A DNA stretch of 64,000 nt. Source: an uncultured virus (IMG/VR IMGVR_UViG_2061766007_000883). Lineage: Duplodnaviria > Heunggongvirae > Uroviricota > Caudoviricetes. The stretch lies in IMG/VR virus record IMGVR_UViG_2061766007_000883; one strand, written 5' to 3'. The notes under the pieces are model-generated. The model was not told the origin of the DNA, did no database searches, and was given only the letters and a program-made list of their open reading frames with translations. The number at the start of each line of letters is the position of its first letter. The first letter of the stretch is position 1. Shown in pieces: positions 18,402-39,516 of the stretch. A program made the position numbers and the translations under genes.

Positions 18402-19181
18402 ATGCGAATCACTTATAAACAGGCTGTTGGACTTGTAAAACAGGCCGGCATCTACGGTGACATTGCACGCTCCATGGCGGGCAACGTGGGTGCTGGCATG
18501 GTTGTCCCTTATGGTTCCGGGCTGGCCAGTCTAGGCGGAACCATCCACGGTATCGCCACGGAAGACCCTGAGACGGCAAAAGTCAATTCAGGCATGAACT
18601 GGATTCCAGCCTACGGCACCAGCCAGGTTGTCCAGCAGAGACGTAACCTGTCCAGACAGATGGGTAACTACGATGACAAGCTGACGGCGGCTTCCGAGCA
18701 GTTCGGTGGCCTTACGGCCAATATTCTTCCTGCGCTCCTGCTCGCCGGTCTAGGCGGATATGCTGGCTGGAAGTTCGGTGAAAAGCCTGCAAGGACAGCA
18801 GCCACGGAAATGGCGAAAGATCCGCACTCCGGTGTCACGAAAGCTGACATAGACAACATGACTAACGCCGGTCGGGTCGGCTCCGCTGGACTTGGTGCGG
18901 GCGTTGGTGCTATGGTTGGCGGGCTTGCCGGGCCGACGATGGGAACGCTGCTTGCGTTGCTACGCAGACGGCGTACGCCAGAGGAACAAAAGGCGTATGA
19001 ACAAGGCGGCAAGGCCATGAACTGGCTGATGCCAGGTGCGGCTGAGTACAACAAGTACAAGGCGCAGGGCTTCATCCACGGACAGCAAGTCGAAGCCGAC
19101 CGAAAGAACAAGGAAGGCGGCGACAACAAGGAAGACGATAAGAAAAAGAAGCCGGAAGACAAGAAGGAAGAAAAGAAATGA
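18402..19181 (+). CDS. Leader-bearing glycine-zipper membrane protein
   Basis: GGAGG RBS; 'MRITYKQAVGLVKQAG'; 'GSAGLGAGVGAMVGGLAG'. Confidence 0.75.
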   Translation: MRITYKQAVGLVKQAGIYGDIARSMAGNVGAGMVVPYGSGLASLGGTIHGIATEDPETAKVNSGMNWIPAYGTSQVVQQRRNLSRQMGNYDDKLTAASEQFGGLTANILPALLLAGLGGYAGWKFGEKPARTAATEMAKDPHSGVTKADIDNMTNAGRVGSAGLGAGVGAMVGGLAGPTMGTLLALLRRRRTPEEQKAYEQGGKAMNWLMPGAAEYNKYKAQGFIHGQQVEADRKNKEGGDNKEDDKKKKPEDKKEEKK

Positions 19182-21518: not shown

Positions 21519-22883
21519 ATGTTGTACAAGGATGCGCTCAAGCAGTTACAGGAGCAAATGCTACAGGAAAAGACTGCCGCAGCCATACCAGGTCTTCCTG
21601 ACAGACGAGATATGGGCGATTTGTCTATGCTCCACGAGGACGACATCGCCACGCTTATCCGCCAGCTCCACCGTGCAAGACGCGCAGGCGTGCACGAGGA
21701 CCTTCGGCTCGGAGGCCCTGGAGGGCTTCTGTCTTGGGCGGTTCCGAAACAGCTTCCCACAGATGACGCAAAGCGCCTGGCCATACGCCAGCCTGTGCAT
21801 GATTGGAGCTACAAGGACTTCCATGGACGGCTACGTCAAGGCTACGGCAAGGGCACTGTCGAGAAGATGGAGGAATCCCCTGTCGTCATCCTCAAGAACT
21901 CAGGTGACCACATCATGTTCACCAGAGGAGACATGCGGGACGCGCCCATTTACAATCTACGGAAGACAAAGGACGACAACTGGTTGCTGTTCATCTCACG
22001 GAAAGGGCAGCCTGATGTCGTTCGCATGTACCCGAAAGAGCACTTCAAGTCCGTGCCGATGGACAAGGTGCCTGCACTCATAGCGAGCGGCGCGGCGGTT
22101 ACGCGCAAGATAGACGGTGCAGGTGCGTTGCTGTATCTTGGCGACCATGGAGCGGAGGCCTACGGCATACGGACTAATTCAAAGGGCGAGAAGCCGTCCT
22201 ACACGGACGCCATCGGCGGTCTGCGGTCGTTGAACATCCCGAAGGACTTGCGCGGGACGCTGTTGCGTGCGGAAGTGTTCGGCCAGCGTGCGGGACAATC
22301 CATCGGACCGAACGAGCTTGGCGGCATCCTGAACGCCACGACACGCAATGCGGTGTACAAGAAGCGCGGAGACGGCATACGCATGTTGCTGGCCGCGCTG
22401 GCTGTGCATCGGAATGGCGTGGACGACTATGACCCGAAGGCCGTGGAGGACATTGTGCGCCGTTTGGGCGCGGCGAACGTCATTCCTGTGACGCGGTACA
22501 CTGGCAAGGACGCGCTGGAGGCCATCGAGCGCATGCGCAACGGTGACGACACGCTCACGAACGAAGGCGTCGTCATCCATCAACCGGGACAGCGGCCACT
22601 GAAGGCGAAGTTCAAGGAGGACGCCGATGTTGTTATCCGCGATGTTTTCAAGGCAGGCGTTGGACCTGGCGTTCGCCCTAGGGCTGGCGGCTTTTCTTAT
22701 TCTCTACCTGGGTCGGACAAGGTGATTGGACGTGTAGGCACGGGATTCGACCACGCCATGTTGGAGGACATGCTTGCCAATCCTGACAGGTACGTCGGCA
22801 GGACTGCCCGCATCCAGTCACAGCAGCAGTACCCTAGCGGAGCGTACCGTGCTCCGAGTTTCATAGCGTTGAAGGAGGATTAA
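21519..22883 (+). CDS. LigD-type 3'-phosphoesterase domain fused to ATP-dependent DNA ligase
   Basis: PE motifs 'QLHRARRAGVHEDLRL', 'SWAVPK', 'KRLAI', 'GYGKGTV'; ligase motifs 'RKIDG', 'LRAEVF', 'NEGVVI', 'KAKF', OB-fold 'GRVGTGF...YRAPSF'. Confidence 0.85.
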   Translation: MLYKDALKQLQEQMLQEKTAAAIPGLPDRRDMGDLSMLHEDDIATLIRQLHRARRAGVHEDLRLGGPGGLLSWAVPKQLPTDDAKRLAIRQPVHDWSYKDFHGRLRQGYGKGTVEKMEESPVVILKNSGDHIMFTRGDMRDAPIYNLRKTKDDNWLLFISRKGQPDVVRMYPKEHFKSVPMDKVPALIASGAAVTRKIDGAGALLYLGDHGAEAYGIRTNSKGEKPSYTDAIGGLRSLNIPKDLRGTLLRAEVFGQRAGQSIGPNELGGILNATTRNAVYKKRGDGIRMLLAALAVHRNGVDDYDPKAVEDIVRRLGAANVIPVTRYTGKDALEAIERMRNGDDTLTNEGVVIHQPGQRPLKAKFKEDADVVIRDVFKAGVGPGVRPRAGGFSYSLPGSDKVIGRVGTGFDHAMLEDMLANPDRYVGRTARIQSQQQYPSGAYRAPSFIALKED

Positions 22884-24660: not shown

Positions 24661-25611
24661 ATGAACATGAATCGTATTAACAAAATGCTGGTCAGCATCC
24701 CGACAGTCAAGTTGCAATCCATGAATAAAGTGCTGGAGGTAAGCTATATGTCCTCCAACATAGGACTCATGAAGAAGGTAGACCCAGAAACTGGGCTGTC
24801 CATACAAGTCGCACTTGTAAATCTGGCCATGTGCCTCGCCACGTCCTCCAACGCCGTCGACACGGCAAAGGCGTTTGTGGAATTCCTGCGCAACGACGTG
24901 TTCCGTCGTTACGTACTGGTAACACAGCTACGCGAGACCTCGCAGGCGCCAAAGCTGCAGGCCGCCTGTGAGAAACTCCACTGGCCAGATGACATGGTGT
25001 ACGCCATGACACAGGCCAGCGCGGACTTGTTGACAGCCATTCCAACGGACGATGCCGAGGCACCTATTCGGTACGACACCATAGCAAATGCCCATTTCAG
25101 CATGGAGGTCGGCCAGAAAGTGCCGTTGGACTTGGCCGCACGGCTGGAACTGGTGCAGGACGCCCTGGCGAAATTCATGCCGCCAGCACCCGAACCGGAG
25201 CCGGAACCGTTGCCAGAGCCTGAACCGGAGCCTGTAGTTGAACCCGAACCAGCGGAGCCTGAGGTTGAGCTTCATCAAACGCTCGACAACGGGCAGAAGC
25301 TCGTGCGCGTCCGTACTCGCGCCGGAAATGTTCACTACATCGTAGTGGATGCTGACGTCGACATCCACACCGCCCCGGAGGTGTGGGATTTGATCGACAG
25401 GGATGAACTCCACCTGTCGGTCAATGTCACGACGGACAGGCTGCGCCGAACGACGGCTCTCAACAAGTACCTGGCCGAGGGCTGGTCGCCGGCCGATGTG
25501 GCGGAGCTCATGGGTGTGCCTAAGCACATCGTGACTAGCGACATCGCGCTACTGCGTAAGCTGGATCGGCTTGGGCCGACACCGGGCATACGACGCAGAC
25601 AGCACCGATAG
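24661..25611 (+). CDS. Protein with (PE)n linker and C-terminal HTH DNA-binding domain
   Basis: AAGGAGG RBS before ATG 24661; 'GWSPADVAELMGVPKHIVTSDIALL' HTH. Confidence 0.7.
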   Translation: MNMNRINKMLVSIPTVKLQSMNKVLEVSYMSSNIGLMKKVDPETGLSIQVALVNLAMCLATSSNAVDTAKAFVEFLRNDVFRRYVLVTQLRETSQAPKLQAACEKLHWPDDMVYAMTQASADLLTAIPTDDAEAPIRYDTIANAHFSMEVGQKVPLDLAARLELVQDALAKFMPPAPEPEPEPLPEPEPEPVVEPEPAEPEVELHQTLDNGQKLVRVRTRAGNVHYIVVDADVDIHTAPEVWDLIDRDELHLSVNVTTDRLRRTTALNKYLAEGWSPADVAELMGVPKHIVTSDIALLRKLDRLGPTPGIRRRQHR

Positions 25612-25618
25612 TCGGGAG

Positions 25619-25653
25619 AAGGCCCTGTGGAGTAATCCACGGGGCTTTCTTTT
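25619..25653 (+). terminator. Intrinsic terminator
   Basis: GGCCCTGTGGA/TCCACGGGGCT stem plus TTCTTTT. Confidence 0.75.
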
Positions 25654-25655
25654 AG

Positions 25656-25696
25656 TGCTTAAAAATACGTGTGATTACGGCAGTATACCATGAAGG
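25656..25696 (+). promoter_or_regulatory. Conserved phage promoter motif, copy 1
   Basis: TGCTTAA-N14-A(C/T)GGCARTATAMCATGAMGG with identical spacing in four copies. Confidence 0.75.
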
Positions 25697-25781
25697 TGAG
25701 TCTACAGCCTTCAACCCGTATCCCCTTACCATGGTCGAGTAAGGAAACGGTTCAGCCTAATAACAACAAGGAGGGCAAAAA

Positions 25782-26267
25782 ATGGACAACAATATGATTA
25801 AAGACCTGTTCGAGCTTATCAGCAAGAAATCACGTGAACAGGCGTGGCGCAAGCGCCACTTCGTCCATACGCGGTCGAAGCAACTGCTAATTGGACTGCT
25901 GTATGACGCCATCAACGACGTGTCCGACAACACGGTCGAAGCACGTATTGGACTATGGACGGCGTCGTTGACTAAAGTCGATATCAACACATACCGTGTT
26001 GAGTTCGGCAACGAGGGGAGAAACGGCACCCAGGCCGAGTTGCTCGACTGGATGACCGAAAGGTTGACGGAATACGAACACACGCTGAAGAAGTCGCATA
26101 TAGCAACTGTATTGGCGTTGACCTCCAGCCAGCTGTATGCTGATGTTGTGAACGTGAAGCTGGACGGCGTTCGGTACGAACTCTCCATGACAGATTGGAA
26201 ACAGCTCAAGGCCATGGCCGAGGAGGCTGACCGTCAGGCAGATGCCGAAATGGAGGCCGCCGACTAG
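25782..26267 (+). CDS. Hypothetical protein (single-gene cassette)
   Basis: AAGGAGG RBS; own promoter and terminator. Confidence 0.75.
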   Translation: MDNNMIKDLFELISKKSREQAWRKRHFVHTRSKQLLIGLLYDAINDVSDNTVEARIGLWTASLTKVDINTYRVEFGNEGRNGTQAELLDWMTERLTEYEHTLKKSHIATVLALTSSQLYADVVNVKLDGVRYELSMTDWKQLKAMAEEADRQADAEMEAAD

Positions 26268-26280
26268 CCTGAGCTAGCGG

Positions 26281-26313
26281 AAAGAAAGCTGGGAGAAATC
26301 CTAGCTTTCTTTT
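26281..26313 (+). terminator. Intrinsic terminator
   Basis: AAAGAAAGCTGGGA/TCCTAGCTTTCTTT stem. Confidence 0.75.
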
Positions 26314-26315
26314 AC

Positions 26316-26356
26316 TGCTTAAAAGAAAACGTTTTGATGGCAGTATACCATGAAGG
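26316..26356 (+). promoter_or_regulatory. Conserved phage promoter motif, copy 2
   Basis: TGCTTAAAAGAAAACGTTTTGATGGCAGTATACCATGAAGG. Confidence 0.75.
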
Positions 26357-26425
26357 ACAAATGTCTGTTCTTCCGGCCTAGTCAGCCGAGTAATAGCCAA
26401 ACAACAACAACAACAAGGAGTAACT

Positions 26426-26716
26426 ATGTTTGGAGCACCGACAATTGAAGAAATCTGTAATCAACCAGTTTTCAATCCACATAATGTGGAATGGTTGCAA
26501 ACGGATTCTGTTCTTCACTTGAACAAGAAATATGGGCACCTTCCAGTATCGACGTTCTTGCTGAAGCTCAAACTGACGGGGCTGGACGTCAGCTGCTGGA
26601 ATAAGATGACATCTGTTCCTCAGATTCTTGCAAGCCAGATGGACAATCCGTACCAAGGTGCGGATGAGAAAATCCAGAAAGTCCTGGATTGGTTTGAGGT
26701 GCAAGCCTTGAACTAA
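26426..26716 (+). CDS. Hypothetical protein (single-gene cassette)
   Basis: AAGGAG RBS after a CAA-repeat leader; own promoter and terminator. Confidence 0.7.
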   Translation: MFGAPTIEEICNQPVFNPHNVEWLQTDSVLHLNKKYGHLPVSTFLLKLKLTGLDVSCWNKMTSVPQILASQMDNPYQGADEKIQKVLDWFEVQALN

Positions 26717-26724
26717 TCCAAGAG

Positions 26725-26760
26725 AAGAAGGCGTCAGGGGCAACCCTGGCGTCTTCTTTT
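26725..26760 (+). terminator. Intrinsic terminator
   Basis: AAGAAGGCGTCAGGG-GCAA-CCCTGGCGTCTTCTTTT (GNRA loop). Confidence 0.8.
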
Positions 26761-26785
26761 AGTGTCTAAAAGAGGCTGTGAAAAG

Positions 26786-26826
26786 TGCTTAAAAACACCT
26801 TGTTTTATGGCAATATAACATGACGG
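26786..26826 (+). promoter_or_regulatory. Conserved phage promoter motif, copy 3 (upstream of the non-coding RNA)
   Basis: TGCTTAAAAACACCTTGTTTTATGGCAATATAACATGACGG. Confidence 0.75.
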
Positions 26827-27660
26827 GATTAATCTCCTGTCTCAAACCTGGAATGGTGTCTGTATCTCCACTATTTCCAGTACCAAGGTCCAACCAGCCT
26901 TGGTCAGTTGCTACCGGGTGTTACGGCGCATACAGGCGCTAGTATGCATGGCAGGGGTGTCTTCACATGAAGGCGTCCTAATCGGAGGTTTCTTCTGCCA
27001 TGAACCGGGACCTTATAGGAAAAATGCGTGCAAGGACTGCAAGAGCCTACACGCGGCCTTTGGGTGGTTCCCAGAGGTAAACCCTGACAGAGGGCGACAG
27101 TGTTTGCAGGCACTGTCAACATGCGCGTGGTCATATTCCGCTGCGCGCATGGTATGCCCCAATGGATGGAATACATGCAGGCGCTTTGCGCCCGTCGCAG
27201 TCGGTCAAGCACCTAACCGCTGCGACGTAGTATGGGGTGCCGGGCGTGAGGACAAGTGTGCCGGAACGCTGACGCGGTACTGGCCGGAAACGGTAAAGGC
27301 CGCACTGCCCTGTTAGCGCTTCTTGGGAGGTAATAGAAGCGCAACCTCCGTATGCAAGCGTGCCTCAGGCATGCGGAGTAGAGATGCACGCAACCCCACA
27401 GATTCTCCGGGGAATAGAGAGAATCATCCCGCATGTGCGCGTGCCTCAGGCATGCGGGAGCAGAGAAGCACGCAACCCAGTTATAGGCTCTGGGGAATCA
27501 AAAGCCATCCAGACAGCGTCAAGCGGCAGCGCGACAAGTCTGGTAGGAGCATCGAGGTCTGCCGGCCACGATGCCCCGCTTCAATCCCGCATACGAGACT
27601 TCGGTCCGTATGCGGTTTACATATATCAAAAGACGAACAGTATTGCACTGTTCTCTTTTA
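26820..27660 (+). ncRNA. Large (~800 nt) highly structured, pseudoknot-rich non-coding RNA of unknown class
   Basis: Promoter at the 5' end; no RBS-led ORF with phage codon bias; many long stems and loop-to-downstream pairings; cUUCGg-capped 3' hairpin (27587-27615); lies next to a tRNA. Confidence 0.65.
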
Positions 27661-27733
27661 GGTATAGTATGTGTGGACATGGATTTTCCTTGTTGCGTTC
27701 ATGTCCACAGCCGTCTGACCAACGGCATCCGAC

Positions 27734-27770
27734 AAGGGCTGCGTCTGGCGACAGACCAGCCCTTCTTTTT
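27734..27770 (+). terminator. Intrinsic terminator
   Basis: AAGGGCTG...CAGCCCTT stem plus CTTTTT. Confidence 0.65.
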
Positions 27771-27777
27771 ATTTTCT

Positions 27778-27851
27778 GCCCGGATAATTCAGTTGGAAAG
27801 AATGTCGACCCCCTAAGTCGAACGTCGCGGGTTCGAGCCCCGCTCCGGGTA
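27778..27851 (+). tRNA. trnR: tRNA-Arg (anticodon CCT), no encoded CCA
   Basis: Acceptor GCCCGGA/TCCGGGT, D arm ATTC/GAAT with GG and A20, anticodon stem TCGAC/GTCGA with loop CCCCTAA, T arm GCGGG-TTCGAGC-CCCGC, discriminator A. Confidence 0.9.
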
Positions 27852-27871
27852 CTATCAGGCTTTTCTTTTAC

Positions 27872-27912
27872 TGCTTAATTACAGCGGATATCATGGCAAT
27901 ATAACATGAAGG
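27872..27912 (+). promoter_or_regulatory. Conserved phage promoter motif, copy 4
   Basis: TGCTTAATTACAGCGGATATCATGGCAATATAACATGAAGG. Confidence 0.75.
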
Positions 27913-27973
27913 ATAATGTTTATTCTTCCGGCTAGGTCGGCCGTACGCAATGCCTAACAACAAGGAGACAACC

Positions 27974-28372
27974 ATGGCAAGTAAAAAGTACCATATCCCG
28001 CATGTCGGAAGCGTCTATCGTCCGTCCAAAAAACAGGCTATCTGTTTTGGTACCTACATCATCGACGGTGAAGAATGGACCGGCAATGTGTCCGTTCGTA
28101 TCGACACGCGTATCATGCGCAAGCAGGGCGTGTTCGAGGCGGCCCGCAGTGCGTTGGCGATTCGCATGCCCATGAAGGGCGACGCACTCGTAAACCTCGC
28201 CGAGGTCACATATGTGACGGACATGCCAGTCCGTTACTGGTTCACACGTCGTATGCGTAAAGCGGTGCGCATGCGCCGTAAGCATTGGACCAATCTTGAC
28301 GCGGACGACAAACAGCTAATCGCCAAAGGAGCTTCCATGGAAGCTACCGTTAGCCACTACGGTATTTACTAG
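27974..28372 (+). CDS. Hypothetical basic protein (single-gene cassette)
   Basis: AAGGAG RBS before ATG 27974; own promoter and terminator. Confidence 0.7.
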   Translation: MASKKYHIPHVGSVYRPSKKQAICFGTYIIDGEEWTGNVSVRIDTRIMRKQGVFEAARSALAIRMPMKGDALVNLAEVTYVTDMPVRYWFTRRMRKAVRMRRKHWTNLDADDKQLIAKGASMEATVSHYGIY

Positions 28373-28375
28373 GCG

Positions 28376-28415
28376 AAAAGAAAGGCGTGGGGCGAAAGCC
28401 CTGCGTCTTTCTTTT
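28376..28415 (+). terminator. Intrinsic terminator
   Basis: AAAAGAAAGGCGTGGGGC-GAAA-GCCCTGCGTCTTTCTTTT. Confidence 0.8.
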
Positions 28416-28496
28416 ACTGTGCAGTGGGTATCGTATCAGTTGTAGTAACGCCTGTGCTTACATAGAATGTAAGACACGCATCATGGTGTAAAGACA

Positions 28497-31400
28497 ATGA
28501 CCGAAAGCATAGAACCAACGGGTGTCGATACGAGCCCGGCGTCCAACGAGACGGTACAGCACTTGGCGCAACCTCCTGCCAAGCCCACGAAAAACGTGCA
28601 TGACTGGCTCCGCGACCTGCGGATGTCGGCCGATGTCAACCAGACGACAGTCGGCGTGGCGGCCGACAGGGTCACACCTGAGCTCATGCTGGCCACGGCC
28701 AACAAGCTGCTCGGCATAAGCCGCCGTCAGGTCGAGCCTGACCCGAAGGACTCCCTGCAGTTCCAGCGGGTGTACGGACCTAACGAATATTTTTCGGAAC
28801 ACATACTGCGTGACGCAGGAAGGCTTGGCCGCCAGCTTCTGTGGAAGGCCACCAACAAGGGAAACCTGGACTTCATGCAGACGGCTGCCTTGGACGGCCA
28901 TGTGTCGGACGTGTTCAATTCCAGCAGGCTGTCCAACATGATTGACGGAAGCTCGCCTTTGGAGACCGTGGACGCGGCGTTCAAGGTCACGCGCATCGGT
29001 GAAGGCGGTGTCGGCGACGTATCGTCGGCCCCTGATGAGATGCGACTTGTCCAGCCGTCGTTCCTCGGATATGTGGACAGTGTCCGCAGTCCGGAAAGCA
29101 TGAAGGTAGGATTGGACACATACCTCACCAAATACTGCATGAAGGGCTCCGACGGCAAGCTGTATCAGAAATTCATCAATGCGCATACAGGAAAGCCTGA
29201 ACTGGTGGACTCCGTGACGGCTGCCAAGTCCGTGGTCACGACGCCTGACATGATGAACGCCAAAACGAATTTCATCTATGCGCTTGGCGGGAAGACAGGC
29301 GTCCGTATCGTCCCCAAGAAGTCCGTGGACTACTATCTACCGAAAATGGACCAGGCCTTCTCCACGGCGGCCAACCTTGTCACCGGCTTGTCTGGTGTCA
29401 AGGAGATGCNNNNNNNNNNNNNNNNNNNNNNNNNGGCCACGCTGATGACCATCGGCAAGGACAACATGGTGTCCATCGACTATGCGAAGGACGTCAGCTC
29501 GGACAATTGGTCGCTGCCGGGCGCGGACAAGGAGGCCATGTCGAACTGCCGCCATCGCATCCGTGCCACGATTGCCAAATTTCCTCCCGGACGTGCATGG
29601 TTCAGGAAAATCGTTTTGTACTCAGGCCGTGCGCTGACCACGTCCAAAGACCACCGCTGGGCTGTGCTGCGTGACGACAAGATAGAACTGGTGGATGCTG
29701 TGAAGCTCAAGCCAGGCGACAAGATTTTCCGCCGGATGTTCAACGATTTCGCAGGTCGCCGTACGTTCGTGCTGGGCGTGCAGGTTGACGCCGCTCTTGC
29801 GGCTTTGCTTGGCTATATGGCGCGTGGCGGATCGCTTCCCGCGAAGGACACCGTTCGCGTTCCCTACGAACAGAAGCACAGGACGGACATAGACAAGGCC
29901 TTGTGCCGCCTGCATCTACGCACGGTGACGTATCATGGTTCCAAGACGGAGCCTGTGCTGTCCATACACGACAAGCAGTTCGCGGACTGGTTTGCCGCCA
30001 ACATGGGGCAGACGCCCGATACGCGGCGCATACCGTCTGAAATCCTCAGCGCCAAGTCCGTCATCGTGGCGTCGTTCCTTGATGCGTACACGGCGGACAC
30101 CACCAAGATAGCGCAGGATGCGCAGGACTACACATGGATTCTCAGCATCGGCAACTTTGTCGAACGTGACGGAATCGCGTTCCTGCTTTCCCGCATTGGC
30201 ACGGACACGTACTATAGGGACGCCTACCAGGGCAACGGCGAGACACAGCTGGCGCTAAAGTTGACGGAATGTACGGCCATGCACGGTTCGCTCCTGCTGG
30301 ACGCTGTCAAGTCCAATCTGCCCGTGCAGGGCGCGTCCATCATGATTGATGTGGACGCGGACGACAACCTGTACGCGTCCGCTAGCGGTATCATCACTCA
30401 CAACTCCAAGTATCCGCTGCAGGCCATCTCCATCGAGGGACGCGAAGCACCGTACGTCCGCAATATCGACAGCGAGACTGGCAAGGATATCCATTCGGCT
30501 ATCGGCAAGTATTTAGGAGCACGATTTGCGGACAAGCCTGGCGTGGTCACCGCCGTCCGTCAAAATCGCATCGACGTCCAGTACGACGATGGCACGAAAG
30601 GCCAGATTGCCCTGTATAACAACTTCCCGATGAACGCCAAGGGCTATATCACGAACACGCCGCGTGTGAAGGCGGGCGACCGTTTCGGCAAAGGCGGTCT
30701 GCTGGCATCGTCCAACTACACGGACGACAAGGGCGTCATGGCAACGGGAACAAACTTGCGTGTTGGCTGGCTGTCATGGAAGGGCGGCACATACGAGGAT
30801 GCTGTCGTTCTGTCCGAATCCGCCGCCCGCAAGCTGACTGGCTCCGTCATGTATTCCGCAGACCTAGACCTTGACAAGACCGTTACGCTCGGCAAGCGCA
30901 ACTACCGTTCGTGGAAGCCGGGCGAGTACACCAAGGAACAGCTGTCCGTGTTGAATGACGACGGCATTGTCATGCCTGGCACGATTCTGCACAAGGGTGA
31001 CCCGATGGTGCTTGCCGTCCGTACGACCGAGCCTTCTCCAGGCACGATGGGCAAGCGCATCCTGACGGACGTGTCCCAGGTGTGGGAGCACGACAATCCC
31101 GGCAAGGTGACGGACGTTGTCCGCACGCGTGGCGGAGTCAAAGTGCTCGCCACGGTGACTACGCCTGTGGAAGTCGGTGACAAGGTGTCAGGCTTGTACG
31201 GCAATAAGGGCGTCTGCAGTATGATACTGCCGGACGACCAGATGCCCGTGGACAAGGACGGCAAGCCGCTGGACATGATTCTGTCACCTCTTGGCCTGAT
31301 TTCCAGGACGAATCCGACGCAGCTCATGGAGACGCTGCTTGGCAAGATTGCGCACAAGACGGGCAAGACGGAACTTATCGACGCGTTCCCTGAGAACGAC

Positions 31401-34381
31401 ATGCACCAGTACGTCATCGACAAGCTGAAGCAGAACAAGCTGAACGCGGAGGATGATTTCTTCGACCCTGAGACTGGACGCAAAATACAGGGCGTCGTCA
31501 ACGGATACTCCTACATACACAGATTGAAGCACTTGGCGGAGTCCAAGGAATCCGCGCGTGGAACGGACGCCTACTCAACGGACGAGACTCCGGGAGGATC
31601 TGGTTACGCAGGATGCTTCCCGGCCGCACAGAACATCATGACAGCCCACGGTGAACGCTCCATAGCCACGCTATGCGAAAAGCACATACATGAGAATGTG
31701 CTTACATGGAACGGCAAGGAGTGGTGCTACAGACCCATAACGGACTGGTTCACATACAGAGCCAGAACCGAGGACATCCTGGATATATTCACGGAATACA
31801 ACACAAGCGACACTGGCAATAAACTTGTAAGGCACACCACATGTCTGCATCCGACGAAAAACCACAAAATGTACATGGCGGACATGACGGTGAAGCTGGC
31901 AGGCGAGCTCAAGATAGGCGACCTATTGGCAAGTATGGGACCGGTGGCGACGGCCGACCAGAAGCGCGTGCTGCTTGGCACGCTCATGGGCGATTCGTGC
32001 TTCTCCACCGACGGCTCGCTGCAATGTGAGCATTCGTACAAGCAAGTGGCTTGGTGCGACTACAAGCAACGTGCGTTAAGTGGATTAGGAGCCACGCTGT
32101 GCACAGGTGTGTACAAAGTGCACGACAGCATCATCAACGGACGTGTAGTCAGGGGCACAAAGGCCAGACTGATACGCGTGCCACGTTCGTACATGCTGGA
32201 CGAGCTACGTGCTAGCATAGTTGTCAATGGAAAACGCATGCTCACGCAAGATACTTTGGACAAATTAGGTGAGCTAGGCTTCTGCGTGTGGTATCTGGAT
32301 GACGGGTCGATGCACAACCACATTAAAGAGAAAGGCAAACCTTCGCCGGAAGCCGTGTTGTCCACATGCGGTTTCACCCCGGATGAAGTTGCTTTGTTCA
32401 GGCCCTGGGTGGAAAAACTGTTGGGCGAACCGGACAGCACAACCATAGCGCCGCAGATGACGAACGACGGCGAACGTCATAACGTGCGTTTCAACAGGCA
32501 GGCATCCTGGCGTATAGCTGAAATGGTCGCCCGCAACATCCCGTGGCAGTTTATTCCACCCTCAAAACACTGGTTGCGCGCATGGTGCAAGGAGCAACAG
32601 AGCAAGACTCCTGCACTGCAGCATGACTTCATATCCCGACTGGGCATAACACCTGTACGCATAGTCGAAATACGGCCATACAAGCACGATAAGCCCGGAG
32701 TCACCGAGATACCTGTGTACGACTTCACAGTCGAAGACACGCACAAGTACACGCTTGCTGGATACGTAATTGTCTCAAATTCAAAGCGTTTCGGCACCCT
32801 GGAGCAGAGTGCGATGGCTGGGCATGCTGCGTTCGACAATTTGCTGGACAACAAGCTCATCCGTGGACAGTCCAACGCAGACTTCTGGCGGTCTATCCGC
32901 ACAGGCGGAATCCCGACGATTCCGGGTGAACCCTTGGTGCAGAAGAAGTTCTTCGCCCATCTGCAGGGTTCAGGTGTCAATGTCCGCAAGACTCAGAAGG
33001 GCATCAGCGTGTTCGCCTTGTCGAACTCAGATGTTGAAAAGTTGGCAGGCCCGCGTGAACTGAAGTCGCGTGACACCTACGAGGCCCGTACGTTCCGGCC
33101 CATCGACGGCGGGCTGTTCGGGCAGGACGTGTTCGGTCAGAATGGCGACCAGTGGGGATACATCCNNNNNNNNNNNNNNNNNNNNNNNNNNNNNNNNNNN
33201 NNNNNNNNNNNNNNNNNNNNNNNNNNNNNNNNNNNNNNNNNNNNNNNNNNNNNNNNNNNNNNNNNNNNNNNNNNCTGAAGCAGGCGTTGTCGAAGATAGA
33301 CCTCGACATGGAAGCCAAACGCGCCATGCAGGAGTTCAAGGACGCGCCTGCGTCCAAGCGCGACAATGCGCTCAAGCGGTACGTGGATGTCGAGAACATG
33401 CGCAGGGCAGGGCTCAACCCGTCAGAATACATGCTCGACCGCATTCCTGTCCTTCCCGCGCAGTTCCGCCCGGTCACGTCCCACAACGGCCTGACGATGG
33501 TGGCGGACGCCAACTATCTGTATGCACAGCTGCTGGACGCAAGGGACGACCTGAGGGACTCGAAAGATTTGCCAGTGGAATATCAGGACAAGGCGCGTGC
33601 CAACCTGTACAAGAAGTGGCAGGAGCTCACAGGGCTGTACGACCCGGAGGATGTCAAGCTAAGGAACAAGAACGTCGGCGGTCTGCTTAAGTGGGCGCTC
33701 GGCACGTCACCGAAGTTCTCGGCGTTCCAGCGCAAGGTTCTAGGTGGTTCCGTCGACACGGTCGGACGCGGCGCCATCGTGCCGAACTCCAAACTTACCA
33801 TGGACCAGATTGGCATTCCGATTGGAATGGCGTTCGACATCATGGCTCCGTTCGTGGAGCGCGGGCTTGTCAAGCGCGGGTATACGCCCGTGGATGCCAT
33901 GAAGATGGTAAAGCAGCGCGACAAGCAGGCGGCAGACGTCCTGAACGAAGTCATCAAGACACATCCCGTGGAGATGAACCGTGCTCCGACGTTGCACAAG
34001 TTCAACATCATGGCGTTCGAGCCAGTTCTTGTCCAAGGGCACGCAATCCAGGTTCATCCGTCTGTCTGCCCAGGTTTCAATGCGGACTTTGACGGTGATA
34101 CGGTTAACGTTCACGTACCAGTGTCGGACAATGCGCGGAAGGAGGCTATGGAAAGGATGCGTCCGTCGCGCAACCTCATCGCCCCCAGCGACCGTAAAAT
34201 CATGTACAAGCCTGAGAAGGAATACATGCAGGGCCTGTATTTCGCCACACGGCTAGGACAGCCCAAGAATGGACGCGTACAGATATTCAGGACCATGGAC
34301 GAGGCTCAGGAAGCATACGAGCACGATATTATCGACGTGGATACACCGATACGGATACTTGAGCTAGAACAGAAACAATAA
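28497..34381 (+). CDS. rpoB: RNA polymerase beta (C-terminal part) fused to beta' (N-terminal/catalytic part), with two inteins; joined across N-gaps
   Basis: RpoB motifs 'EMRLVQPSFLGYVDSVRSPE', 'GGTYEDAVVLSE', 'GDKVSGLYGNKGV', 'HRLKHL', 'KRFGTLE'; RpoC motifs 'RTFRPIDGGLF', 'IPVLPAQFRP', 'NRAPTLH', catalytic 'FNADFDGD'. Confidence 0.92.
29410..30404 (+). mobile_element. Intein 1 in RNAP beta (degenerate LAGLIDADG domain); N-terminus hidden in the N-gap
   Basis: Block B 'LTTSKDHRW', C-terminal 'LYASASGIITHN/S'; interrupts the equivalent of RpoB 'RALMG.NMQRQAVP'. Confidence 0.8.
31614..32780 (+). mobile_element. Intein 2 in RNAP beta with LAGLIDADG homing endonuclease (389 aa)
   Basis: Starts 'CFPAAQNIMT', block B 'HPTKNHKM', EN motifs 'LLGTLMGDS' and 'VWYLDDGS', ends 'VYDFTVEDTHKY...IVSN/S'. 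Confidence 0.92.
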
Positions 34382-36356: not shown

Positions 36357-37259
36357 ATGGACAATGGAATGAATAAGAAAGCAGCAGATCCAACATACAC
36401 TGACCTGCTCAACCAGCTGAAGGATACCAAGGAAGGCCAGGACGCCTTGACAAGGTTGTCCCCAGGTGAAATCGGCTGGGGCGTCGCAGGCGCCGCAGGC
36501 GGCGGTGCGCTTGGCTATCTCTTGTCACGCCTTGTCCATCGCAAGGCGTCGGCGCGCACCAAGCTGCTGTACACGATGCTTGGCGCTCTGGCCGGCGGTG
36601 GCGGTTCACAGTATCTGCTGGCGCACATGAAAGGCTCCGACGGCTTCAATGGAACGAAGAAGGAGGAAATGCGCCTCAGCGGACTGTCGGCTTCGCCGTC
36701 GGCCAATACGGAGGACATCAAGACGGACAGCAAAGGCGAGCCTAAACCAGGCAATTTCGTATGGCATCCAGGCGTTACGGCAGGCTTAGGCGCTGTCGGT
36801 GGCTTTGTCAGGGGCGCCAAACTAGGTGATAAACGGAGTCTTGTCAATGCCCTCACAGGCGCTCCCAATGTATATGAATGGTACCAGGACAGGCGCGTAG
36901 GACGGCGAGAGGACACCGAACGTACCATGAAAGCGTGGTTGCGCAATAACCGCAATCAAATGCAGCAGGGAAGACCGTTTGAAAACGGCGCCGAGTACAG
37001 GGGAAGATGGACGATAACACATGACGGAAGCAATCCGACGACCTTGAAACTCGTGCCGATACAGCATGATACCAATTATGTCAGGGACGCTGTGAACGGC
37101 ACGACAGCCGCCCTTACGCACGGAACAGCCGCTTACCTGCTGCATCTTGGCGCCAACGCCCTTAACAACCACTACGGTTTCTCGGACCCGAACCGCGCCT
37201 ATGTCACAAAGGAAGACATCATCCGGGCGGCCGAACAGATGAAGAAGGGGGATAAATGA
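36357..37259 (+). CDS. Glycine-zipper virion protein
   Basis: 'NKKAA'; 'GVAGAAGGGALGYLL', 'LGALAGGGG'. Confidence 0.7.
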   Translation: MDNGMNKKAADPTYTDLLNQLKDTKEGQDALTRLSPGEIGWGVAGAAGGGALGYLLSRLVHRKASARTKLLYTMLGALAGGGGSQYLLAHMKGSDGFNGTKKEEMRLSGLSASPSANTEDIKTDSKGEPKPGNFVWHPGVTAGLGAVGGFVRGAKLGDKRSLVNALTGAPNVYEWYQDRRVGRREDTERTMKAWLRNNRNQMQQGRPFENGAEYRGRWTITHDGSNPTTLKLVPIQHDTNYVRDAVNGTTAALTHGTAAYLLHLGANALNNHYGFSDPNRAYVTKEDIIRAAEQMKKGDK

Positions 37260-39516
37260 GCGTTACAACGCTTGGTCGTGAAATGGTCAGAAAAGCCCTG
37301 CCCGACAAATACAAGGGCTGGGCTGACAAGACGCTGGACAAGAAGACCATCGTGGCTTTGACGACGCAGATGGCCAAGGAGGACCCGGATGCATATGTGC
37401 AGGTCCTGCAGGGATTGAACAACGTCGGCGAGCGCGTCGTGTCCATCTATGGGCGTGACGCCGCTCTGTCGTTTACTGACTCCATTCCCGGAAAGTCGAC
37501 CATGGAGCTTAACCGAAAGCTGCGCCAGCTGGTCGACCAAGTGCTCGACGACCCGAAGCTCACCGAGGAGCAGAAGGAGGAGCGCATCAAGGAAATCGGC
37601 TACAAGTACACGCAGAAAGTCCAGGACGTCGTGTTTGAGGACCAGGATTCCCGACATACGGCGCTCGCGTCCCAGATTAATTCCGGGTCACGTGGCAACA
37701 AGACGCAGCTCATGCAGCTGATGTTCGGCAACATGATGATGAAGGACGCGCTCGGACGCGATATCCCGTACCTTCACATGGACCCGTATGTGTTCGGCAC
37801 CAGCCCGTTCGGTTACTGGGTGTCATCCTCGTCCGGACGAAAAGGATTCTACGACGTGCAGGCCGCCACTGGCCAGGCCGGGTATCTGGGCAAGCAGGTC
37901 ACGGCTGTCACGCATGACGTGGTCATCGAAAAGGATGACTGCGGGACAAAGGACACAGGCGTGCCGTTCAAGGCCGCAGACCAGTCCAATATCGGGCGCG
38001 TCCTGCTCCGGCCGTTCCACAAGCATCCGGCAGGCTCCATCGTCACACCTGAGATGGTAAGTGAAGCGGACGACGATGAGGAAATGATACTCAGGAGCCC
38101 TGTCACATGCAAGTGCCGTCATGGCGTGTGCGCCAAATGCAACGGACTGGATGAGAACGGGCGCTTCCCGGGCGTCGGTAGCTATGTGTCGCTTAATTCC
38201 GCCCGTTCGTTTGTTGAGAAAATTACGCAGGCAGGCATCTCCTGCCTGTACGAAGACACTTTGGTACGCATGGCAGACGGCTCTGCCAAGCGTATCGCGG
38301 ATATCACCGTGGGCGACACCGTCCTAGGCGCCAACGCATTTGGTGAATTCGCTCCCGCAAAGGTGACGGCCGTTATGAACAACGGTGTGCAGCCCGTCTG
38401 GAGAACAACGCTGGAGAACGGCGTCGAGGTTGTCAGTACCGAGCGGCACAAGATTCTGAAGGAGTTCATGGCGGACTACGTCGAGGAGCCCGTCGGAAAG
38501 CATCCTGAAGGCGAATACTGGCCCGTCATGATCGAGCAGAACGAGTTCCCTGAGGAGGCCGTCGTGGATACGCATGAGTATGTCGGCATGGCGCAGGTCA
38601 ACGACATCGAGGTCGACAACGACGACCATCTGTATGTTCTTGCCAACGGACTTATCGTCAGCAATTCAAAGCACCAGGGTGGCGTTGGCGGCAAGAAGGT
38701 TGTCGACCCGGATGGCGAAGACCAGCCGACTGGATTCAAGGCCATCGAACGCATGTTCATGGCTCCGGACAATTTCCCTGGCGGTGCGGTCATCGCTCCT
38801 GAGGACGGCGTGGTCAGCGCGATCCGCCCGGCTCCGCAGGGCGGCAACTACATCACGGTCGGGTTGAAAACACTGTACTGCGCCCCTGAGCGTACGTTCA
38901 ACGTCCATGTCGGAGACAAGGTGTCCGCAGGCGACGTGCTGACGAACGGTGTGCCCAATCCTGCGCAGATTGTGCAATACAAGGGGCTGGGACAAGGCCG
39001 CCGCTACTACATCAGCAAACTAGGCGACGTGTTCGCCAAAGCCGGATTCGGCGTGGACCGCAACAACCTCGAATCTTTCACACGCGCCATGATTAACAAG
39101 GTGCAGATAACAGCAGACGACGGCTACCGTGGATATCTTCCAGGCGACATCGTCAGCTACAGCGAAGTNNNNNNNNNNNNNNNNNNNNNNNNNCCATGAA
39201 AGCATCAAAGGCAGGCGGCAAGTACCTTGAACAGCCTGTCCTGCACTACAGCATCGGCACGCGCATCACGCCGGACGTGTCGAAAACGCTGGACAAGTAC
39301 GGTTTCAACGACGTGCTGGTGAATGACAATCCGCCACCGTTTACATCTGAGTTCATGCGGCCTGCCGCCGCACTACAGAACGACGAACACTGGCTTCCCA
39401 GACTTGCAGGCGAACGCCTGCGGGACAGCTTGTTCGACTCGGCAAGGCGCGGATTGACCGACCCGTATGACTCTACCAGTTATGTTGACAGAATAGTGAC
39501 AGCGCCGTTCAAGTAA
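37256..39516 (+). CDS. rpoC: RNA polymerase beta' C-terminal fragment with mini-intein; joined across N-gap
   Basis: 'NSGSRGN', bridge helix 'GRKGFYDVQAATGQAGYL', 'DDCGT', Zn site 'RSPVTC...GVCAKC', trigger loop 'EKITQAGIS/SKHQGGV'. Confidence 0.9.
38243..38665 (+). mobile_element. Intein 3 (141-aa mini-intein) in the beta' trigger loop
   Basis: 'CLYEDTLVRMADGSAKRIADITVGDTV'...'STERHKI'...'VNDIEVDNDDHLYVLANGLIVSN/S'. Confidence 0.93.

Follow-up and report, generated by a model that had tools for sequence, protein, structure and literature searches.

To our knowledge, only a handful of heavily structured bacterial and phage RNAs longer than 500 nucleotides (nt) are known. The closest described systems are GOLLD and ROOL. 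In a preprint (bioRxiv 10.1101/2024.12.08.627333), GOLLD is described from phages and prophages, often beside or around transfer RNA (tRNA) genes, and consists of two domains with many pseudoknots; no known protein partner is given there. Its members are often longer than 800 nt, with a 3' region that is conserved and a 5' region that varies (bioRxiv 10.1101/2024.12.08.627333). GOLLD and ROOL form RNA-only cages, the purpose of which that text gives as unknown. ROOL, which was discovered in data from cow rumen metagenomes, occurs in phages and prophages near tRNAs and is ornate, containing multistem junctions and pseudoknots (PMC5737381); both RNAs are thought to be co-transcribed with tRNAs. 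Here, we describe an element at positions 26820-27660 (plus strand) of a 64,000-nt stretch of DNA (the window) from an uncultured bovine-gut phage of the Caudoviricetes (IMG/VR record IMGVR_UViG_2061766007_000883). We consider it likely that the element encodes an orphan large structured non-coding RNA that is independently transcribed, with a dispensable tRNA co-transcribed, and whose role is probably that of an architectural RNA acting in trans, as is proposed for GOLLD and ROOL. It is a well-supported candidate and not a demonstrated RNA; we infer its transcription, ends, pseudoknots and function from the DNA.

An earlier sequence-only reading had proposed that the element is a member of a GOLLD/ROOL-like class or a new class of giant RNA. 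The likeness holds for the context. With GOLLD (which we take to be Rfam RF01998) the element shares the phage location near a tRNA, a length around 800 nt (here 841-956 nt), pseudoknots and an organization in two domains. However, the covariance model of the family with its conserved 3' core is not matched, and the phage is one of roughly 170-200 kilobases (kb) with its own RNA polymerase. ROOL (presumably Rfam RF03087) resembles the element in its setting in cattle-gut phages, the nearby tRNA and an ornate predicted structure, but has six multistem junctions together with three pseudoknots in about 581 nt, while we predict one junction domain and about six pseudoknots in about 840-950 nt. 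Membership in either family was not supported. Rfam 15 at the gathering threshold recognized only a tRNA-Arg(CCU) in the whole window. A cmscan search with permissive filters at E <= 10 over the 1.3 kb from 26600 to 27900 gave seven matches, the tRNA and chance matches in the flanks, of which none lies within 26832-27724 and none belongs to GOLLD, ROOL, OLE, transfer-messenger RNA (tmRNA), RNase P, introns or ribozymes. The failure of the sequence-only reading to see any resemblance to tmRNA, RNase P or group I/II introns is borne out by this search and, for tmRNA, also by ARAGORN, which called none. Thus, the element is not a member of a known RNA family; it is GOLLD/ROOL-like in context, not in sequence. 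Since the GOLLD and ROOL models are unmatched, the "new class" branch of the proposal remains. A keyword search of the open-access literature returned papers on GOLLD, ROOL and OLE and no described class that fits the RNA. Strings of pseudoknots are a feature of tmRNA, and in tobamoviruses a pseudoknot domain lies upstream of, and adjoins, the tRNA-like end. The element is like these in having consecutive H-type pseudoknots adjoining a tRNA or tRNA-like structure; in contrast to them it has no tRNA-like domain or tag reading frame, and its tRNA is a separate, complete and dispensable gene.

No credible gene is found at 26820-27660, and the long open reading frames (ORFs) of the window lie on the plus strand. 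Mechanical ORFs of 138, 112 and 172 amino acids (aa) and shorter ones can be read on the plus strand of the element. The codon log-odds of 11 such ORFs range from -0.28 to +0.10 bits per codon and their G+C content is flat across the codon positions. Scores in the window's 22 long genes range from +0.22 to +0.71, and those of the three small cassette genes next to the element from +0.29 to +0.52; in the long and the small cassette genes, except a 525-aa gene, G+C at the third codon position is well above that at the second. A collection of 15 billion proteins contained none of the six translations searched from the element, but did contain the three flanking small proteins (three of four flanking-ORF forms). 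The 138-aa ORF had no relatives at E <= 0.001 (five word-sharing candidates), the 112-aa ORF had none among 1.84 billion representatives, and Pfam gave no matches for the ORFs of the element. That the element is non-coding is therefore supported. Its G+C content is 0.55-0.60, compared to 0.42-0.48 on either side, in segments (26250-26999 and 27600-28049) that contain the spacers and small ORFs. The raised G+C is the reverse of ordinary intergenic DNA.

The element is preceded by a promoter-like motif that is common to three protein-coding cassettes around it. Exact copies of a 17-mer, ATGGCAATATAACATGA, stand at 26807 and 27893, and copies with two to three mismatches at 25677 and 26337; four copies with at most three mismatches compare with 0.09 expected, and four were reached in none of 100 shuffles. 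Alignment of the four copies yields a longer common box, GTGCTTAAAA, about 12 nt and ATGGCARTATAMCATGA; ahead of the element, GTGCTTAAAA, about 12 nt and ATGGCAATATAACATGA span 26785..26823 on the plus strand. A 5' stem-loop follows in all four cassettes. In the element it is formed by GACGGGA/TCCTGTC (26822..26841, plus strand), at the likely transcript start. The letters of these stem-loops differ while the pairing is kept, the third pair being C-G in cassette 3 and A-T in the other three. Past the stem-loop, cassettes 1, 2 and 4 continue with AACAACAAGGAG and an ATG, and cassette 3 (26807) lacks both. The claim that promoter copy 3 alone is without a ribosome-binding site and ORF is in agreement with this alignment. 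In a related phage, G4, with 67% identity over the polymerase N-terminus, a like motif of two boxes stands ahead of genes, and because of this the cassette box would be a real promoter of the phage family. The four cassettes between 25630 and 28400 have in common a composite motif of terminator tail, promoter and 5' stem-loop. In G4 (L045, about 18462-18725, minus strand) a leader of about 260 nt lies between a promoter-like box and the first ATG that has a ribosome-binding site; leaders that are long and structured may be frequent among such cassettes.

Downstream, two terminator-like hairpins offer possible transcript ends. The first, T1 (27628..27659, plus strand; hairpin 27635-27653), consists of GAACAGT-ATTGC-ACTGTTC followed by TCTTTT, with an A-tract upstream, and was flagged on both strands by a terminator scan. 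The second, T2, is a stronger GC-rich predicted hairpin with a GCGA loop at 27734-27764 (plus strand), followed by CTTTTTATTTT, the tail reaching 27775. The terminator scan did not flag T2, possibly because its predicted stem is split by one unpaired base. The predicted RNA would be about 840 nt long up to T1 and about 950 nt up to T2. Beyond T1, a 3' extension (27672..27775, plus strand) is predicted to fold into a 13-base-pair (bp) hairpin at 27672-27709, a small hairpin and then T2; it is kept in the related strains X3 and X7 described below and may be the true 3' end of the RNA or a read-through spacer ahead of the tRNA. The tRNA-Arg(CCU) (27778..27852, plus strand) begins 2 nt past the T2 tail and 118 nt downstream of T1. 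It is the one tRNA called by both ARAGORN and Rfam (57.4 bits). It has no promoter box of its own and would therefore be made by read-through, so that it is probably co-transcribed with the RNA.

The element is predicted to fold far better than expected by chance. On the plus strand the whole element reaches -357.4 kcal/mol (z-score -5.7), as good as which none of 20 shuffles was. The 3' half (27300-27780) has a z-score of -8.3 and the 5' half one of -4.6, each with none of 100 shuffles as good, and for the 3' half the minimum-free-energy and centroid structures are nearly identical. The three cassette ORFs next door have z-scores of -2.9 to -3.2, and 400-nt windows elsewhere in the window a mean of -1.1 +/- 1.5. 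We counted 31 uninterrupted local helices of at least 6 bp, compared to 13.4 +/- 3.7 in shuffles (at most 27 in any of 300) and 11-20 in eight coding controls. Candidates for pseudoknots between a loop and downstream sequence number 12, with 3.0 +/- 2.0 in the shuffles and 1-8 in the coding controls. All eight helix arm pairs quoted by the sequence-only reading were found where it had placed them and are complementary if G-U pairs and one bulge are allowed.

In the 3' half of the predicted structure, the helices interleave from 27316 on as about six H-type pseudoknots. Two of the building blocks of this chain are tandem duplicates with an 81-82-nt period, and a joint profile of the two copies has no other match in the window. 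Module 1 (27346..27426, plus strand) is a predicted double H-type pseudoknot. In its first pseudoknot a 10-bp stem (27346-55/27369-78) carries the loop GCGTGC, which pairs with GCACGC (27386-91); in the second, CCCC/GGGG encloses the loop GATTCTC, which pairs with GAGAATC. Repeat analysis and the module profile identify module 2 (27427..27508, plus strand) as a tandem paralogue of equal topology. From module 1 to module 2 the outer pairs of the 10-bp stem change from C-G to U-A and from U-A to C-G, which are two double compensatory changes, and two more stem pairs swap wobble and Watson-Crick pairing. The second pseudoknot of module 2 keeps the topology with other letters (CCCAG/CTGGG and GGCT/AGCC).

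Related strains allowed us to ask what is kept. Contigs containing at least part of the sampled sequence words were found in 18 entries from 11 studies of cattle-gut metagenome runs, two of them possibly the source. Four runs (X3, X6, X7 and X8) from three studies other than the possible source were aligned to 25600-29400, and the RNA is present in each of them with 96-99% identity. Cassettes 1 and 2 are missing from X3 and X7 (joints 25660/25664 to 26770/26776), cassette 4 is missing from X3 (27852 to 28408, where 33 other letters intervene), and X7 lacks the tRNA (joint 27775 to 27845), yet keeps the RNA and T2. The RNA is thus the constant part amid the loss of cassettes and tRNA, and the tRNA-Arg(CCU) is dispensable. 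The junctions fall at the terminator/promoter motif. This recalls the promoter-early stem-loop (PeSL) motifs of T4-type phages, which are reported to mediate modular shuffling (PMC2839356, PMC4122927). The likeness lies in small genes flanked by a conserved composite terminator/promoter motif and in the gain or loss of whole cassettes with junctions there; here, however, the motif sequence is another one, the phage is unrelated, and one cassette holds a giant non-coding RNA and a tRNA in place of a small ORF.

Within the element, X3 and X6 have a 1-nt deletion at 27091, and X7 has 1-nt deletions at 27020, 27085 and 27089 and one inserted G. Every listed indel breaks ORFs. Homologues that conserve a reading frame, such as ORF 26900..27316, would have spoken for a protein, but 1-nt indels break this frame in all three runs that cover the site. 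In the predicted fold, one 4-bp hairpin loses its U-A pair through the small indels and retains its three G-C pairs. X3 also has a deletion of 82 nt (27385 to 27468, with 11 letters common to both sides) that joins the two modules at the repeated GCACGCAACCC, and it is predicted to leave one intact hybrid double pseudoknot. The RNA and tRNA differ at 11 of 1018 positions in X3 and at 12 of 835 in X6, compared to 29 of 993 and 20 of 919 in the polymerase gene. Of 139 strain differences 40 were examined, and eight listed substitutions fall into the element: two are unpaired in the predicted fold and two are compatible with pairing (G27565A, U-G to U-A; A27629G, A-U to G-U). Taken together, the strain data argue strongly against coding and for retention, and are neutral on the fold.

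We call the element a non-coding RNA because of the absence of a coding signal, the frame-breaking indels, the promoter and terminators, the G+C content, the folding, the compensatory changes between the modules and the retention among strains. In the mechanism we propose, transcription would start at the cassette promoter (26785-26823) and the 5' stem-loop on the plus strand and would end at either of the two hairpin/U-tract terminators, and read-through of these would yield the tRNA-Arg(CCU). The RNA would have two parts, a 5' multi-helix junction domain and a 3' string of about six H-type pseudoknots with the duplicated 82-nt module. During infection it would serve as a stable architectural RNA that acts in trans, possibly as an RNA-only or RNA-dominated assembly tied to the phage tRNAs and translation, and not as a messenger RNA, a riboswitch or a DNA site. 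If this is true, a further unrelated giant RNA in a like setting would be a sign that RNAs of this kind arose in phages again and again, and repeated invention would in turn point to a general need tied to tRNAs or translation during infection. A functional test should be easier to design than for GOLLD or ROOL, with a clear promoter and terminators, a natural pair of one- and two-module forms, and variants with and without the tRNA. By analogy one may go further and picture a third class of giant phage RNA, of independent evolutionary origin, whose molecules assemble by themselves into an RNA-only multimer on a plan unlike that of GOLLD and ROOL, with a junction domain and a pseudoknot chain of variable copy number, a kissing contact at 27530-33, a cassette promoter read by the phage polymerase, and a co-expressed tRNA; in this full form the idea is speculative and we regard it as unlikely.

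Several observations weigh against the RNA that we propose. None of the 18 entries that contain the sequence is an RNA run, and thus neither a transcript nor RNA ends were seen there. In X7 the RNA, with 22 differences in 681 positions, is no better conserved than the polymerase gene (13 in 523). The remaining four of the eight listed substitutions hit predicted pairs, namely a closing pair (27064) and weak 3-bp helices (27531, 27532 and 27619), and there is no double compensatory change among the eight. The low z-scores are not unique to the element, as two neighboring 400-nt windows with cassette ORFs, terminators and 5' hairpins reach -7.7 and -6.7 (15 shuffles each). One or more of the 300 shuffles also attained 12 pseudoknot candidates. 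The changes between modules 1 and 2 are covariation that comes from two paralogues only, and the search of the collections listed further below for homologues beyond this phage species cluster found none, hence there is no independent covariation. Finally, the minus strand of the whole element folds nearly equally well (z-score -5.9). The choice of strand therefore rests on the orientation of the promoter, the U-tracts after the hairpins and the energies of the 5' domain.

Among the other explanations the most probable one is a cis-acting leader or processing scaffold, a long structured 5' precursor that would serve to deliver or regulate the tRNA-Arg(CCU) or to control transcription running into the polymerase gene; its pseudoknots would block nucleases or act in anti-termination. 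The position of the tRNA, 2 nt past the T2 tail and without a promoter box, fits such a leader, as does X3, where the RNA and tRNA lie directly ahead of the polymerase gene; co-transcription with tRNAs is also thought to apply to GOLLD and ROOL (PMC5737381). However, X7 keeps the RNA and T2 despite the loss of the tRNA, two terminator-like hairpins lie between the RNA and the tRNA, and in the window a whole ORF cassette lies between the RNA and the polymerase gene. In addition, an ornate structure of about 850 nt goes far beyond the needs of any known tRNA leader. We therefore hold this explanation to be rather improbable.

Less probable still is a very divergent GOLLD, ROOL, tmRNA-like or RNase P-like RNA that the Rfam models miss. 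The cattle-gut habitat, the size and the tRNA neighborhood would fit such an RNA, and the string of pseudoknots recalls tmRNA. But even at E <= 10 no model matched in the 1.3 kb, ARAGORN called no tmRNA, and in a related phage, G3, and the first 100 kb of G4 Rfam likewise finds only tRNAs, with no GOLLD or ROOL.

We give very little credence to an element that works as DNA, that is a replication origin, a packaging site or a hot spot of cassette recombination. Inverted repeats in DNA would explain why both strands fold, and the 3' half indeed folds alike on both (-204.8 and -203.9 kcal/mol); the locus is also a zone of cassette shuffling with junctions at the terminator/promoter motifs, and a tandem repeat is present. 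In the 5' domain, however, the plus strand is favored by 31 kcal/mol (-213.8 compared to -183.0 kcal/mol; z-scores -4.6 and -2.9) and forms 25 G-U pairs as opposed to 16 on the minus strand. The G+C content lies above that of the neighboring spacers and is not AT-rich, the GC-skew has no inflection at 26-28 kb, the helices are short and interleaved as pseudoknots instead of forming long palindromes or iterons, and a promoter lies upstream and terminators lie downstream. Decayed or unconventional coding, in which remnants of a former cassette gene or small proteins would owe their apparent structure to G+C and local hairpins, is just as doubtful: the plus strand does hold the ORFs of 138, 112 and 172 aa, and the small orphan proteins of the neighboring cassettes also lack family matches, but codon scores are negative, no ribosome-binding site follows the promoter, protein relatives are missing, indels break the frames in strains otherwise 97-99% identical over the element, and decay would leave unexplained a conservation at least equal to that of the polymerase gene in two of three compared runs (X3 and X6; X8 left out).

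Homologues of the proposed RNA were searched for in several collections. A blastn search of GenBank phages with 1021 nt of the RNA region gave no match, and a 19-mer common to both modules had no match in IMG/VR. Six degenerate patterns derived from the translation of the 138-aa ORF gave two pattern matches in IMG/VR, neither of which was confirmed; in JGI metagenome contigs, patterns from the translations of 5' and 3' ORFs gave 44 and 139 matches, none confirmed; and in GTDB genome contigs one of 33 pattern matches was nominally confirmed. The latter, L050 from a Lachnospiraceae metagenome-assembled genome, is ordinary-looking coding sequence with no other likeness to the RNA, and we judge it a chance match. 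The sequence-only reading had suggested collecting homologues from related phage contigs with nhmmer; in the loci covered here this yielded none. The 5 kb upstream of the polymerase gene at 23 IMG/VR loci of polymerase relatives (26-72% identity) contain no tRNA and no blastn or nhmmer match, five whole related records gave only noise (best E 0.13), and nhmmer with the whole RNA and the module profile found no match in 626 kb of loci that include two complete relatives. G3 (L032, 16624-17215) and G4 contain a cluster of six tRNAs with an ORF-free stretch, which is about 250 nt longer in G3 and has no Rfam match. This stretch of 345-590 nt after tRNA-Met was considered as an analogue of the element and rejected, as its z-score is -1.3 with 12 of 100 shuffles as good, and it is not similar.

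The remaining predicted anatomy of the RNA is as follows, all on the plus strand. Behind the 5' stem-loop, two hairpins, CTGGAATGGTG/CACTATTTCCAG and ACCAAGGT/GCCTTGGT, occupy 26848..26904. The ACCAAGG/CCTTGGT hairpin noted before stands, while the proposed pairing of its loop CAAC with GTTG is, with 4 bp, too short to carry meaning. The 5' domain proper is predicted at 26905..27310, where the minimum-free-energy and centroid structures agree. It would contain a CATGGCA/TGCCATG arm (26947-27002) enclosed by long-range helices and a multi-helix junction (27005-27243) closed by CCGG.ACCUUAUA / UAUGGGGU.CCGG. Inside the junction about eight hairpins are predicted, among them those at 27056-27078, 27096-27117, 27120-27151 and 27193-27227. 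The GCACCT/GGGTGC pseudoknot proposed before and the long-range helix ACCUUAUA/UAUGGGGU of the minimum-free-energy fold are competing pairings. The 3' chain would open with pseudoknot A (27316..27349), in which GCGCTTCT/AGAAGCGC encloses the loop GGAGGT that pairs with ACCTCC. After the two modules, pseudoknot F is predicted at 27509..27574, where CCAGAC/GTCTGG carries the loop CGGCAG that pairs with CTGCCG within the hairpin GCATCG/CGATGC. The palindrome CGCG (27530-33) lies inside pseudoknot F and is CATG in X3 and X6 by a double change at 27531-32. A double change from palindrome to palindrome arises by chance in about one of three cases. This self-complementary site may be an intermolecular kissing contact, which we treat as a lead and not as evidence. 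A hairpin of 9 + 3 bp with a cUUCGg cap follows at 27587..27615; it had been pointed out before and is confirmed in the predicted fold.

PHROGs assigned no function to the genes next to the element. Some 4 kb upstream of the RNA/tRNA cassette, at 21519-22883, lies the gene of a protein of 454 aa that contains a LigD 3'-phosphoesterase domain (E 5.5e-11) and may be an end-healing enzyme; its 525-aa neighbor has no family match. Pfam identifies genes of a phage-encoded multisubunit RNA polymerase in the window. At 28497-34381, beta and beta-prime domains (RNA_pol_Rpb2/Rpb1) apparently form one fused gene split by inteins, and masked runs of N at 29410-29434 and 33166-33274 break the polymerase reading. 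The phage belongs to a large uncultured group with fused beta/beta-prime polymerase subunits that are often interrupted by inteins, with 180 relatives at E <= 1e-5. These relatives are 1565 to 2755 aa long, their size varying with the content of inteins and homing endonucleases. Those at 78-97% identity were found in Logan and ENA only, and among cultured phages the closest have 24-27% identity in the N-terminus of the polymerase. At 37256-39199 another, separate protein similar to RNA polymerase beta subunits (PHROG 3015, 2962) is encoded. The phiKZ-like phages encode two polymerase sets, and by analogy to them this phage may have two sets as well.

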